Below the pieces are notes generated by a model that had not been told where the DNA came from, searched no databases, and saw only the letters and a program-made list of their open reading frames with translations. From positions 175,832,001 to 175,896,000 of the forward strand of contig OZ024742.1 in NCBI GenBank assembly GCA_964016885.1: 64,000 nt of DNA, written 5' to 3'. The DNA comes from Eledone cirrhosa (taxonomy: Eukaryota). The position numbers and the translations under genes were made by a program. Below, in pieces: positions 336-37,045 of this stretch; within the stretch, counting starts at the first letter, position 1; each line of letters begins with the position of its first letter.

Positions 336-860
336 AGCGGTGATGAATTAGTTTTGCGAGCTTTTTTATATGAAATCGTGTGTCGAAATAAATATTGTTA
401 TACTTGGGGAGGGTCATATTTGTGTAATATTGCCAGAATTAATAACAGAACACACTCACTGTTTGGTTGGTTTTCGCTTCTCGCTTCTGTGTCTTTTATA
501 TCGGTAATCTAATTTATTCGGTCCTCAATGTTGCCATTGACTGACCGACGGTCAAAAATAATACAGATACAATATAGACACAAACACATATATATAGTTT
601 ATCATAAATCTTTCGTTGCACATCTGCAACATCGTCAGTGGTGCTATCTTTTCCTCCTGTTGTATTGTATTGTGTCTATATTGTGTCTGTATTATTTTTG
701 ACTGTCGGTCAGTCAATGGCAACATTGAGGACCGAGTAAGTTAGATTACCGATATAAAAGACACAGAAGCGAGAAGCGAAAACAAACCAAACAGTAAGTG
801 TGTTCTGTTATTAATTCTGGCAATATTACACAAATATGACCCTCCCCAAGTATAACAATA
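336..860 (-). mobile_element. Non-coding fold-back insert (PLE pseudo-LTR-like, family A copy 1) in (TA)n
   Basis: ~190-bp inverted arms (~393-582 and ~670-860) around a spacer with an HHR core; flanked by (TA)n; terminus TATTGTTATACTT(G/T)GGGAGGGTCAT is shared with the 3' end of the PLE at 36016. Confidence 0.75.
600..643 (-). ncRNA. Minimal type I hammerhead ribozyme motif (degenerate helix I)
   Basis: Minus strand: cacca CTGACGA t gttgca-gatg-tgcaac GAAA gatt TA tgata; perfect 6-bp helix II, but only ~2 bp of helix I. Confidence 0.55.
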
Positions 861-879
861 TATATATATATATATTATA

Positions 880-982
880 TAAAGGACGTCCCTCAAAAAT
901 GTTTACACACTTCAACAGCATTCTTATAAATATTGCATGTACAGGTAATCAAAGTATGTATACATTTTTTGTGACACCCTGT
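880..982. mobile_element. Degenerate Tc1/mariner-derived MITE
   Basis: Imperfect ~30-bp TIRs (aaggacgtccctcaaaaatgtttacacactt / aagtatgtatacatttttttgtgacaccctg) in a TA context. Confidence 0.45.
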
Positions 983-1683
983 GTATATATATATAATTAT
1001 GCACACGAGAATAATGTTAACAAGGAAGTAAATATTTACATATTGAACACTTTTTTTACCTTAAAACTTATGGAAAATTTCAAGTTTAGCTTGTTGATTT
1101 AACATGTTATTAATTTAGTTAACAAAACAAAAATAGTTCTAATCATTACCTTTTATAAAAATAAAACAAAATTCTTCTCTTCAAATAAGTTTGTCAGACA
1201 TAGTTGTTCATTTAAAACTGGCTGTTCACAATGTACTGTAATTTGGTCTGGCAGAAATAGACAATTAAATTATTCCAATTTGAATTGATTTTATCTTTCT
1301 TGCGAGAACATGTAGTCTGCTTACGCTCCCCCTATCCCCACAATGCCAGTATCTGTTAAAATCAAAGTTTATTCTCTATTAGCAGCATTTGATGACAATA
1401 TTTTTTTTAAAAAAAGAAAAAAATTTTAAATCTGCTCATTAGATTGTGCAGACTAATTCTTAACTTATTTTCTGCTGCTTTCACTACAAGATATATCCAC
1501 AAACATTTTGCAATATTCTTGTACTGGTTTCAGTCATTAGACTATGAAGGAATCTAGTCAAACACAGTACTTATTTTCCACAAATCTGGTATTTATTTTA
1601 TCAATCTCTTTTTGTTGAACAGCTAAGTCATGAGTATAATAAACAGTAAAAAATAGTAATAGTAAACACAGACACACACACAC

Positions 1684-2105
1684 AATCATCATCATCATCA
1701 TCGTTTTACGTCCATTCTTCCATGCTAGCATGGGTTAGATGGGTTGTTCTGTTGTGGGCAATCCCAGGTCAAGTGACCATGTCTTGCTCATACGGAAGTG
1801 ATTTTGGCTTGATTTCTACAACTGGATGCCCTTCCTAACACCAATCTCATTTACAGTGAATACTGGATGCTTTTTTTACCATGGCACCTACATGATCACT
1901 TTACAGTGCCAACTGGGTGATTATTTTTGTGACACCTACATGACCACTTTACAGGGGAGAGGGGGGTAACATACTGTCTACATATTTCAGATTCGGCTTG
2001 TACCTGTGGGAAGTCGGGTCTTCTGCATTACTGTGTAATGATAGAGGTGTCGGTCCTGTGTCATCACCTTTAAGAGATGCAATTGGGTAAGGTCAGCTTT
2101 TAGTG
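1684..2105 (-). mobile_element. RTE-type LINE 3' end / tail-sharing repeat with (CAT)n tail
   Basis: (CAT)n + gttttacgtcc...catgctagcatgggttag...ggatgcccttcctaacacc; same tail as the RTE ORF ends at 53.5-54.5 kb. Confidence 0.7.
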
Positions 2106-34467: not shown

Positions 34468-34888
34468 ATGTAGGAGGTGAGTTTTATTGTAGTACAATAA
34501 AGCAATGCAGATATCGGATAAGAAGCACTCTACAGTTTGTAGGACTGGGGTATACATAATATATAAGAACAAAAGATGGTTAAAAGAGTTCCATGTATTT
34601 TATTATGGGCATTTCAAAATTAAATATCATCATGTAATAATATTTGTGTTTTCATCAGATAAAACAGGAAGACATGATATCAAGGTTAAAAAACACTTGT
34701 GGATAGTGCAGTTTTAAATCAACATATGATTTAAAACTGCACTATCCACAAGTGTTTTTTAACCTTCATATCATGTCCTCCTGTTTTATCTGATGAAAAC
34801 ACAAATATTATTGCATGATGAGATTTGTTTTTGAAATGCGCATAATAAAATACATGGAACTCTTTTAACCATCTTTTGTTCTTATATA
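34468..34888. mobile_element. Head-to-head palindrome of the same PLE 3' end as 33425-33680
   Basis: Inverted copy 34468-34721 plus direct copy 34727-34888; HHRs at 34598-34664 (-; helix III mutated to TGCCCA) and 34784-34850 (+; intact). Confidence 0.8.
34784..34850 (+). ncRNA. Canonical type I hammerhead ribozyme
   Basis: ttttat CTGATGA aaacacaaat...atttgttttt GAAA TGCGCA TA ataaaa. Confidence 0.85.
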
Positions 34889-35577
34889 TTATATATATAC
34901 ATATATATATACATATATATATATATATATATACATATATATATACATATATATATATATATATATACATATATATACATATATATACATATATATATAC
35001 ATATATATACATATATATATACATATATATATATACACATATATATATATACATATATATATACATATATATATATACATATATATACATATATGTATAT
35101 ATATATATATATATATATATATATATACATATATATACATATATGTATATATATATATATACATATATATATATATATATACATATATATACATATATAT
35201 ATATATGCATATATATACATATATATATATACATATATACATATATATATATACATATATATATATATAAATATATATATACATATATATACATATATAT
35301 ATATATACATATATATACATATATATATATACATATATATACATACATATATATGCATACATATATATATACATACATATACATATATATACATATATAT
35401 ACATATATACACATATATATATATACATATGTATATATATATATACATATATATATATATATATACATATATATACATATATATATAAATATATATTTAT
35501 ATATATATACATATATATAAATACATATATATACATATATATACATATATACATATATATATATACATATTTACATA

Positions 35578-35865
35578 TGCCCCCACACACCCCACCGCAC
35601 GGTGGTCGTGGAAGTGTCACGGCACAAAAGCACCCAGCCCACACTGTAAAGTAGATATGTAGGCGCCACGAAAAAGCACCCAGCACTCACTTTGAATGAG
35701 GTTGGTGCTAGGAAGGGCATCCAGCTGTCGAAATCAAGCCACATCAGTTTCCTGTATGAGCAAGGCATGGTCAGCCGACCAGACACTGCCCACAACATGA
35801 CAACCGGTCTAACCCATGCTAGCGTGGAAGAACGGACGTAAAACGGTGATGATGATGATGATGAT
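35578..35865 (+). mobile_element. RTE-type 3' tail repeat
   Basis: aggaagggcatccagctg...aacccatgctagcgtgg...gacgtaaaacg(gat)n. Confidence 0.7.
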
Positions 35866-36015
35866 ACAAATATATACATACATAGATATATACATATATA
35901 TATATACATATATATACATATATATACATATATATATACATATATATATAAGATAAAAATACTTGAGTGCGTTGAGTGCTTTGTTAATTTTTATATGAAT
36001 TTATATATATATATA

Positions 36016-37045
36016 TATTGTTATACTTTGGGAGGGTCATGTTGCCAATAAGAAACACACGCACCAGTAGCTTTCACTTCAATTTATTATATATTTATAA
36101 ACTTATAAATTTACAAATCTACAAACTTATAAATTTCTGGTTGGTTGGTTGGTTCCACAACCAGATAGTTGTTTTTATATAGTCATAGTCCTTCCGTCAC
36201 ACACTCTGTGACCTCTTCAGAGACTGGGGATTCCTTCCTTTGTTTCTGTGCCTTTCCTTTCTTCTGTCCTACGCCATTTTCTTTCAGTGCGTGTGTTGTG
36301 TGCTCAGTTTGCGCATGCGCCACATCCAGGTGTCTGTGTGTGTTTGTGTTCATTTATCTATTTGTTTATTTATTTACATGTTATTGGTTGGTTGTTTGTT
36401 CTATGTGTGTGTGTGTTTTCATTTTGTCCTTAATTGTAAGTTGTGATGTTGCTGTTCCACTCATATTTTCTATTTAATTTTGGTTGTAATTCTTTTATGT
36501 TTATTGCCTCTTTAATTTGTCTAAACATTGCATCTTTTCTGTGTGTAGATTCTATTTTTATTTCTATGTTCTCTAATTTACCCTTGTGTTCTATCTTAGC
36601 ATGTTGGTAGAGTACAGATGAGTCTTTATTATCTTGAAGGTCTCGCCAGTGTTCATTTATCTGTTCCCCTATACTACGAGCTGTCTCACCTATGTACACT
36701 ATATTTTTGTTTCTACATTGTCCTTCAGTACATCTTATGCTATACACTACATTTCTAGTTTTACAGTTAATATGGGGGCTTATTTTACAGGTTATACATT
36801 TCTTATCTATACATGAGGGTCTTTGGAACGGGTATGTCTTGCTAATAAGCGTTTTTACGGATGTACCAGGTCTTTCTACTATCTTAATATTGAGTTTATG
36901 TTTATTTAGGGTCCTTCTAAATTTGTAGGCTAGTTCGCCTCTAGGGGTTGTATCGATGAACATTACACTCTGGTATTTATTGCTATCATACCATGAGTTT
37001 ATTCTATTGGCCTTGTTCCTAGTTCTTTCTAGTTCTTTCTATTCT
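36016..37045 (-). mobile_element. Neptune-like PLE 3' fragment (Cys-rich linker + GIY-YIG) with pseudo-LTR
   Basis: ORF 36430-36963: CIDKKCITC...CKTRNVVYSIRC...YIGETAR...H...RQIKEA...PKLN; degenerate HHR at 36181-36225 (CTGAAGA g gtcaca/tgtgac GGAA ggac TA). Confidence 0.8.

Follow-up and report, generated by a model that had tools for sequence, protein, structure and literature searches.

Islands between TA tracts in an Eledone cirrhosa region are mostly 5'-truncated Penelope-like elements with hammerhead motifs

Hammerhead families between the TA tracts

We analysed a 64,000-nt stretch of the Eledone cirrhosa genome (the window; contig OZ024742.1, positions 175,832,001 to 175,896,000), where islands between TA tracts carry type I hammerhead ribozyme (HHR) motifs. 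Repeats within the window were found by masked self-BLAST, since a plain repeat search was swamped by TA. We found 12 HHR families (A, B, C, D, E, G, H, I, J, K, L and M), against the roughly ten of the initial annotation. The inserts are as follows, with putative types of Penelope-like element (PLE) read from protein motifs.

336-856, minus strand: family A, head-to-head 3'-end insert of a Neptune/Nematis-type PLE; core 638(-), H17 605, helix I of 2 bp
3877-4289, minus strand: family A, second insert; core 4121(-), H17 4088
5973-6513, unstranded: family B, fold-back pair, 3' end of a Hydra-type PLE; cores 6168(-) and 6182(+), 137-nt tail on the plus arm
6721-9940, plus strand: family C, broken Hydra-type PLE (RWK, DKT); HHR 9492-9612
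13652-13836, minus strand: family D, 3'-end insert severed within helix I; core 13829(-), H17 13772
13850-14075, plus strand: family E, 3' end of a Hydra-type PLE; U3-A8 variant motif at about 13979-14020, damaged here
15346-17832, plus strand: family G, 5'-truncated Hydra-type PLE with ORF to 16730; HHR 17677-17793, H17 17788
23725-24505, minus strand: family H, ORF-less unit of about 720 nt with its own 3' end before it; HHR 23912-24033, H17 23916
24689-25658, minus strand: family I, ORF-less head-to-tail unit of 518-522 nt; cores 24935(-) and 25453(-), inverted arm with damaged core 25534(+)
28901-29663, unstranded: family J, inverted pair, 3' end of a Hydra-type PLE; cores 28980(-) and, damaged, 29417(+)
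30534-30935, minus strand: family K; HHR 30690-30744
30935-33679, plus strand: family L, truncated Hydra-type PLE with ORF 31652-32506; HHR 33484-33554, H17 33546
34464-34889, unstranded: family L, short fold-back pair; cores 34658(-) and 34790(+)
36020-37040, minus strand: family M, truncated Neptune/Nematis-type PLE; GIY-YIG part 36430-37038, core 36220(-)

A strict type I descriptor (core C[T/C]GANGA, GAAA and U16.1-H17, with at least 3 bp in helix I, 4 bp in helix II and 2 bp in helix III) gave 10 matches in the 25,017 nt of islands between TA tracts. Dinucleotide shuffling of the islands, which had been proposed as a control, gave far fewer, with a mean of 0.065 matches and a maximum of 2 over 200 shuffles; 10 was reached in 0/200. 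The HHR motifs in the window are confirmed as real. All seven that had been called clearest satisfy the descriptor (cores 6168-, 17682+, 24029-, 28980-, 30739-, 33492+ and 34790+). The distance from site to insert 3' end, put at about 45-210 nt beforehand, was 43-208 nt from cleavage site to 3' TA tract for the intact motifs. The remark that helix sequences are unrelated while pairing is kept also held, with helix I pairing, the catalytic boxes and a palindromic helix III retained across families.

The nine sites that had been listed as weaker fared unevenly. Site 6178 satisfies the strict descriptor and 34598 a looser scan; at 600 and 4083 the core is intact and helix I spans just 2 bp, as in their genome copies; and 9503, 13767, 29411 and 36181 are damaged here but intact in genome copies of their families. 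The remaining site, 13871, has no HHR core (the family E sequence there is CTGCTGC) and was rejected. About 115 nt beyond it lies the variant motif of family E, whose insert is duplicated locally at 19184-19409 and 22018-22243. A second HHR-like motif in the family G copy, at 16847, was rejected as an intact HHR; it lacks G12, with AAAA replacing GAAA in 20/20 copies examined. The family I motifs at 24935(-), 25453(-) and, damaged, 25534(+) were absent from the initial annotation.

Genome copies put the window copies in context. The family C core reads CCGATAA here and CCGATGA in 18/19 genome copies, and the 3' end of the window copy is split by a SINE at 9635-9838. Family D genome copies have a 10-bp helix I and are intact in 29/29, the family J core is CCGAAGA in 24/24, and family M, with a damaged GGAA in the window, is intact in 18/19.

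An Rfam scan of the window at the gathering threshold matched no HHR model and returned just one tRNA; in E-value mode, the 150 of 329 matches that were listed comprised only TA-driven miRNA noise and the same tRNA. In single-strand MFE folds, some motifs (B, K and L) formed helices I and II, and most did not reach the three-way fold. Such misses are expected of dimer-type motifs; the folds were not counted as evidence.

Coding Penelope-like elements behind the islands

We found that most islands are 5'-truncated PLE copies and that 9 of the 12 families are the 3' ends (pseudo-LTRs, pLTRs) of coding PLEs elsewhere in the genome. For these nine the HHR lies in the terminal repeat of an element encoding RT and GIY-YIG, with full tandem units in G and M (4.06 kb in the latter). 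A PLE-protein match was present within 1.5 kb upstream of genome copies in families A (15/29), C (9/19), D (8/29), L (6/29) and M (9/19), counts that may take in neighbouring elements, the single matches for H and I being family M. Family G was linked to a PLE ORF in 10/20 copies besides its full tandem units, and family E genome copies are also linked to a PLE ORF. The 3' UTRs can be long: in family B, where the ORF is correctly oriented in 5/5 long loci, it consists of 3-4 kb of microsatellite, and in family J, where 3/25 copies extend to the ORF end at the flank limit, it spans about 1.4 kb. Family K has at least 1.1 kb of upstream sequence in another genome copy. The ORF piece at 30907-31701 was rejected as its gene, being the inverted arm of family L (inverted ORF arm at 30935-31700).

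The islands had been posed as either extreme truncations or non-autonomous parasites. Both occur, with nine families joining a PLE ORF in the genome and two consisting of ORF-less head-to-tail units, and the broader picture of a TA-targeted PLE community with HHRs in its 3' ends, accompanied by non-coding HHR elements, is supported.

Since Pfam was weak on the PLE pieces (a weak GIY-YIG in 1/6 and nothing further), we assigned clades from hand-read motifs. By these protein motifs, not a tree, the coding families appear to be mostly Hydra-type, with two of Neptune/Nematis type. Families B, C, E, G, J and L have a C-terminal GIY-YIG and a CxCX5C linker and lack CCHH; G and C carry RWK and DKT, and B reads RWR and DKT. 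For family D, only similarity to Hydra-type proteins was observed. Families A and M, of Neptune or Nematis type, have a CX2-5CxxC linker (CX4CxxC in A) and the CCHH cysteines. Of the earlier label "Naiad/Neptune-like", the second half may fit A and M, but Naiad identity was rejected: Naiads have an N-terminal endonuclease and are without canonical HHRs (PMC8557442), whereas all ORFs here run RT then C-terminal GIY-YIG, and HHRs are present. Like Naiads, the elements here target (TA)n and insert in tandem or inverted form.

The likeness to the Hydra clade (PMC8557442) covers RT followed by GIY-YIG, RWK, DKT, the CxCX5C linker without CCHH, and the CxxC and CxH that surround E and N. It extends to HHRs, (TA)n targets, and inverted arms that are truncated at the 5' end, one end bearing a tail. 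Hydra-clade elements are generally under 3 kb, which is a tendency, and have few families outside cnidarians (Craig et al. 2021, PMC8557442). In contrast, the family G unit is 3.6 kb and the family B 3' UTR alone 3-4 kb, tails are up to about 110-160 nt long, and the type, recognised by motifs and not by a tree, appears abundant and young. Family G, with 40 matches at 100% identity and an intact 773-aa ORF in its 3.6-kb tandem units, is apparently a very young Hydra-type PLE.

Insertion ends and the ORF-less families

A TA tract lies downstream of nearly every family B (27/28), J (23/24) and L (24/25) copy and of 16/20 copies of G. We found 3' ends against TA at two sites in B (+61/+199), G (+42/+155), J (+47/+208), L (+53/+135) and M (+168/+228), which match the two RT start sites that create the PLE tail (PMC11167929). 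The 5' stops of the inserts are sharp and family-specific. A rule that they always fall at the helix I edge was rejected, as it holds for B (-10) and D (-13) but fails for L (-68/-69). So was a class of inserts starting at the cleavage site: four family L matches at +55 were one fold-back insertion in two overlapping loci and not significant, and a single insertion among those examined has its 5' end exactly at the cleavage site.

We consider it highly probable that the islands are short 3'-end insertions of about a dozen PLE families, nine joined to RT and GIY-YIG genes elsewhere and two ORF-less head-to-tail units likely sharing those enzymes, each family with a type I hammerhead for which cleavage chiefly in dimeric form is predicted. 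In the proposed mechanism, the endonuclease would nick (TA)n and RT would prime inside its RNA template, using one or two set positions that lie downstream of the HHR cleavage site by about 40-260 nt; the ends are those seen here and the chemistry is taken from PMC11167929. Since priming would lie downstream of the cleavage site, the HHR would be copied from uncut or re-ligated RNA. Synthesis would usually stop early and often fold back, which would account for the observed head-to-head pairs, in which one arm bears a tail. The TA setting of each insert would then be a target for the next, so that nested clusters accumulate. Families H and I would be copied from circular or multimeric RNA, hence their more-than-unit inserts.

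For H and I we examined 25 loci each; a first look had given more than 2000 candidates. The longest ATG ORF is 45 aa in H (GC 0.34) and 18 aa in I (GC 0.35), and neither family has a PLE-protein match. Family I forms 7-unit arrays in 2/25 loci and shows the permutation junction in 11/25; the family H monomer junction is clearly crossed in only 3/25 loci, one being the window. Like PLEs, both families stop at a constant position against (TA)n: H at +185 in 13/20 copies and I at +175 in 8/23. An inverted partner accompanies 13/23 copies of I and none of the 20 H copies examined (0/20); one H locus runs into other sequence.

Judged from their sequence, H and I are ORF-less head-to-tail units resembling non-LTR retrozymes and likely use PLE enzymes. 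The retrozymes of PMC7229834 and bioRxiv 10.64898/2026.07.22.740005 likewise lack ORFs, are low in GC and form head-to-tail units, from monomers to multimers, in which each unit has a single type I HHR; the axolotl HHR_Amex2 also has a mismatched helix II base, and PLE mobilisation has been proposed for the animal elements. The units here, 522 and about 720 nt, compare with 150-450 bp in the former and 51-972 bp in the latter. The HHRs here differ in being PLE-like, and the likeness to retrozymes is at the DNA level. The PLE-type integration ends of the copies here are a line of evidence not seen in the accessible parts of either source.

H and I might instead be pLTR-derived satellites, or internal repeats of an unsampled coding PLE, spread by DNA-level duplication. 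We think this improbable, though PLE termini can seed tandem satellites (discussed in bioRxiv 10.64898/2026.07.22.740005), long arrays are present (loci L152 and L161; also L303 and L329) and the sample of H and I loci is small. Dispersed copies on many contigs stop at one nucleotide against TA (H 13/20, I 8/23), their 5' ends are ragged, and head-to-head inversions occur in I (13/23); such ends and inversions are not produced by unequal crossing-over. Moreover, the upstream sequence re-enters the monomer, not an ORF.

Genome-wide load and hammerhead function

The initial annotation had presented the region as a hammerhead archipelago. In 59 arbitrary 10-kb stretches of the genome we found 93 HHR motifs, or 158/Mb, and 274/Mb in the window; 12/59 stretches hold at least three motifs, resampling reaches the window's count with P of about 0.17, and motif numbers per stretch correlate with TA content (rho 0.61). 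The genome is full of such inserts, and the window is a TA-rich cluster of the usual kind. That most islands are ribozyme parasites independent of autonomous elements, in a special archipelago, is thus very unlikely: most islands lack an ORF inside the window, H and I are ORF-less and the local density is 274/Mb, but 9/12 families join PLE ORFs, and the sample mean and the 12/59 stretches largely refute it.

Extrapolation from the 59 sampled stretches gives a genome load of about 4.7e5 motifs (2.7-7.1e5). The largest published single-genome figure that we found is up to 120,000 retrozymes, in axolotl, and PLE HHRs were reported at about 2,000-9,000 per genome (Cervera & De la Pena 2014, PMC4209133), compared with the 4.7e5 estimated here.

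Helix III is palindromic in 70/93 sampled motifs, though the descriptor does not require palindromy. Such a palindrome is the dimer signature of PMC4209133. Other features shared with the PLE pLTR HHRs of that study are the type I fold, a long helix II, the U3-A8 core variant, occurrence mostly singly or as opposite-strand pairs 100-700 bp apart tied to truncated PLEs, and many families per genome. Families A and M have an extra base after A9 and a G10.1-C11.1 pair; C, E and K have a G-C pair without the extra base, and L an A-U pair. The remaining six (B, D, G, H, I and J) have a fixed symmetric mismatch atop helix II, in contrast to the bulge and G10.1-C11.1 of PMC4209133. Also unlike that study, U4C is fixed in C and J and helix II reaches 116 nt; family E carries U3-A8. 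The helix II mismatch (six families) and U4C (two families) may weaken catalysis.

It is possible, if rather doubtful, that the motifs are retained as protein-binding or structural pLTR elements and cleave rarely or never in vivo. PLE min-HHRs cleave poorly in vitro (PMC4209133), insertion of an anole PLE was unaffected by HHR mutants, with no reads ending at the site (PMC11167929), and Xenopus retrozyme dimers cleaved in 1/9 only (bioRxiv 10.64898/2026.07.22.740005). Here, core or helix II deviations are fixed in at least 8/12 families and just one examined insertion begins exactly at the cleavage site. However, catalytic boxes, palindromic helix III and helix I pairing are kept despite unrelated helix sequences, which fits selection on cleavage. 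This alternative touches function alone and is compatible with the PLE-insert anatomy.

A wider proposal, which we judge evenly balanced between right and wrong, is that this 3-Gb genome holds about 300,000-700,000 intact hammerhead motifs of type I, a load that would exceed the largest printed figure several-fold. Their sources would be a young burst of Hydra-type PLEs and the ORF-less retrozymes; in the latter, the constant 3' ends, the insertion into TA and the fold-back inversions would be traces of mobilisation by PLE enzymes, with RNA longer than one unit as the template. The sharp 5' stops would be fixed RNA 5' ends, set by pLTR start sites or by blocks to a nuclease, and short HHR-bearing RNAs would then be copied as SINE-like templates. 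An alternative source of the stops would be template jumps at ATAT-type sites, driven by microhomology.

Hammerheads in PLEs, the palindrome in their helix III, the targeting of TA and the derivation of retrozymes from PLEs are already in print, and locally we see a PLE cluster of textbook kind. The genome-wide load, estimated above any single-genome count that we found, is less ordinary, as are the abundance of Hydra-type elements and the 5' stops, which are sharp and differ by family; the useful part is the genome as a whole. It pairs apparently very young, intact Hydra-type PLEs with ORF-less HHR units having the same integration ends, and this pair makes two questions testable: whether PLE proteins mobilise retrozymes, and what role the pLTR hammerhead plays. 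If the load estimate is true, transcripts across TA-rich regions would often carry potential dimer-cleaving ribozymes, and a large class would be absent from the repeat annotation of this lineage.

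Hammerhead motifs in the window and across the genome

Using a type I hammerhead (HHR) descriptor (core C[T/C]GANGA, GAAA and U16.1-H17; helix I of at least 3 bp, helix III of at least 2 bp, and helix II of at least four paired positions with a bulge or mismatch tolerated at the top), we found 11 motifs in the window, 10 within the first 36.5 kb and a weak one at 63150. The islands between the (TA)n tracts (25,017 nt) hold 10 matches, relative to a mean of 0.065 and a maximum of 2 in 200 dinucleotide shuffles. All seven sites called clear in the initial annotation satisfy the descriptor. 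Its nine weak calls stand only in part: 6178 matches the descriptor and 34598 a looser scan, 600 and 4083 have an intact core but a helix I of just 2 bp, four are damaged here with their families intact elsewhere in the genome, and 13871 was rejected as an HHR. Family I, at 24689-25658, had been overlooked. No HHR model matched in an Rfam scan of the window at the gathering threshold.

The window lies at C3:175832001-175896000 of a 3.0-Gb assembly, presumably octopus-like given its repeat and karyotype features. To sample this assembly, 60 10-kb stretches were requested at round-number coordinates and 59 existed, with unplaced scaffolds outside the sample. We found 93 motifs in 589,600 bases (158/Mb), and five block shuffles yielded 1-2 apiece; two arrays account for 26 of the 93. 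There were no motifs in 27 stretches and at least three in 12, and resampling arbitrary stretches equals the window's 10 motifs with P ~0.17, so a special ribozyme 'archipelago' at this locus is not supported. The motifs are real, of a known kind, and at an ordinary locus.

Weighted extrapolation yields 4.7e5 motifs per genome (bootstrap 2.7-7.1e5), with damaged, U3-A8 and 2-bp helix I forms excluded. Counts reported with other descriptors are ~2,000-9,000 for single genomes (PMC4209133), and ~5,000-6,000 for mussel and coral and up to 120,000 for axolotl (PMC7229834). Literature searches for hammerhead with cephalopod, or with Penelope-like and octopus, returned only Craig 2021 and a twister paper; Lunse et al. 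(dimeric HHRs linked to Penelope-like elements, PLEs) may cover related genomes. The word 'ribozyme' is absent from the main text of a 2026 curated Octopus vulgaris repeat annotation (PMC13282606).

The window also holds other elements:
14120-14660, 19430-19980 and 22264-22814: an inverted element, flanked by TA and free of HHRs, whose arms each include a tRNA-like segment (Rfam tRNA at 22372-22442, 35.1 bits); it may be a tRNA-bearing PLE-type passenger.
27471-28778: Tc1/mariner-type DNA transposon with terminal inverted repeats and weak Pfam HTH_Tnp_Tc3_2 and DDE_3 matches.
12017-12250, 14757-15020 and 20059-20331: MITE-like palindromic inserts inside TA tracts, without HHR.
10579-11984 and 27079-27394: fragments of an RTE-like LINE type, present in both orientations (RVT_1 match), together with a small island, flanked by TA and lacking an HHR, that has a palindrome at its centre.
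13850-15127, 19184-20434 and 22018-22814: nested-insert block with two to three local duplications (94-99% identity), either a real tandem duplication or an assembly effect.

PLE genes and ribozyme cores of the families

Copies were collected in 12 genome searches. From 83-2884 first-look candidates, each search scored the best 40, and 20-30 loci per search were examined; every copy count given here therefore describes a sample drawn from the most similar copies. A same-strand PLE-protein match lies within 1.5 kb upstream in 15/29 loci of family A, 9/19 of C, 8/29 of D, 6/29 of L, 9/19 of M and 10/20 of G, some of which may be neighbours. Family B has such a match in 0/28 loci, and its ORF lies 3-4 kb upstream across a microsatellite in all five long loci. 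Family E is joined to an ORF ~280 nt upstream, and the ORF end is reached at the flank limit in 3/25 loci of family J. Families G and M form tandems of terminal repeat, ORF and terminal repeat (3.6 kb and 4.06 kb), with an open 773-aa frame in the G unit. Family K has a long upstream region, and no ORF join was found in the copies that could be followed. The 3' extension of family C (9901-9930), common to its genome copies, is the reverse complement of its own ORF start (6742-6771), in contrast to the sense tails of G and M.

Every long ORF seen has the domain order RT then GIY-YIG, which excludes Naiad (PMC8557442), named in the initial annotation. Families B, C, E, G, J and L have a CxCX5C linker, and RWK/RWR and DKT wherever the N-terminus is visible; by these hand-read motifs, they share the linker and motifs listed for the Hydra clade, whose described features are CxCX5C, RWK, DKT, (TA)n targeting and HHRs (PMC8557442). 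Since families A and M have a CX4CxxC linker and CCHH cysteines, they are, by motifs, Neptune/Nematis-type.

Outside the window's own loci, core boxes are intact in A (28/29), B (28/28), C (18/19), D (29/29), H (23/24), I (23/23), J (24/24), L (25/29) and M (18/19). Because the copies sampled are young, this documents the family state and does not demonstrate selection. U4C is fixed in families C and J, and a natural U4C HHR has reduced activity (PMC3088659). The core of family E is fixed as U3-A8, a variant already described in Schistosoma (PMC4209133), and six families have a fixed mismatch at the top of helix II. U3-A8 motifs with a palindromic helix III also occur in 5/59 arbitrary stretches (L278, L293, L311, L325 and L327), outside the density estimate. 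At 16843-16900, 117 nt past the family G stop codon, an HHR-like motif with helix I and a minimal palindromic helix III has AAAA in place of GAAA in 20/20 copies examined; it is possibly a vestigial second ribozyme.

ORF-less families and integration ends

Family I forms head-to-tail repeats with a 518-525-nt period (seven units inside each of two loci), crosses its permutation junction in 11/25 loci, and has a longest ATG frame of 18 aa. The family H unit is ~720 nt with a longest frame of 45 aa, and its junction is clearly crossed in 3/25 loci, including the window. The single upstream protein match of each belongs to a neighbouring M copy. These ORF-less families fit non-LTR retrozymes as described in PMC7229834. 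On the basis of co-occurrence and sequence trees in 31 vertebrates, 3 insects and 1 anthozoan, a preprint from 2026 argues that non-LTR retrozymes derive from PLEs (10.64898/2026.07.22.740005). Two more ORF-less HHR tandem arrays lie in the arbitrary sample, L303 (C3:190000001-190003400; 310-nt unit) and L329 (C28:110000001-110010000; ~424-nt unit).

Across families, inserts abut TA, 5' ends are ragged or piled, and 3' ends are fixed at one or two sites that follow the predicted cleavage site by 42-258 nt. H and I likewise end against TA, at +185 in 13/20 and +175 in 8/23 (nt 3' of that site). Head-to-head pairs carry the tail on one arm; inverted partners accompany I in 13/23 and H in 0/20. 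For PLE HHRs, the usual arrangement is described as solitary truncated copies and pairs on opposite strands, and a palindromic helix III as implying cleavage as a dimer, with low activity (PMC4209133). The PLE tail is reported to arise from RT starting internally at two sites, and insertion in vitro did not require HHR cleavage (PMC11167929). Priming downstream of H17, the cleavage position, would mean that the template crosses the site uncut or re-ligated. The source of the more-than-unit I and H inserts would be a circular or multimeric RNA. PLEs tend to insert next to each other (PMC6765202), and the TA remaining around each insert may draw in the next.

Relative to HHR position C3, 5' ends pile up at -10 to -27 in 13/27 loci of family B (two being arms of one insertion, and the B offsets being inflated by fold-back palindromes), at -4 to -13 in 10/28 of D, and at -68/-69 in 9/28 of L. 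The B and D queries started at their pile-up points, a possible slight bias, whereas the L query did not; incidental copies reproduce the L and B peaks. Since each of the three sites touches an ATAT-type motif, the pile-ups may come either from microhomology jumps or from fixed RNA 5' ends. The leads of most value here are the genome-wide load and the evidence for PLE-borne retrozymes from their integration ends.
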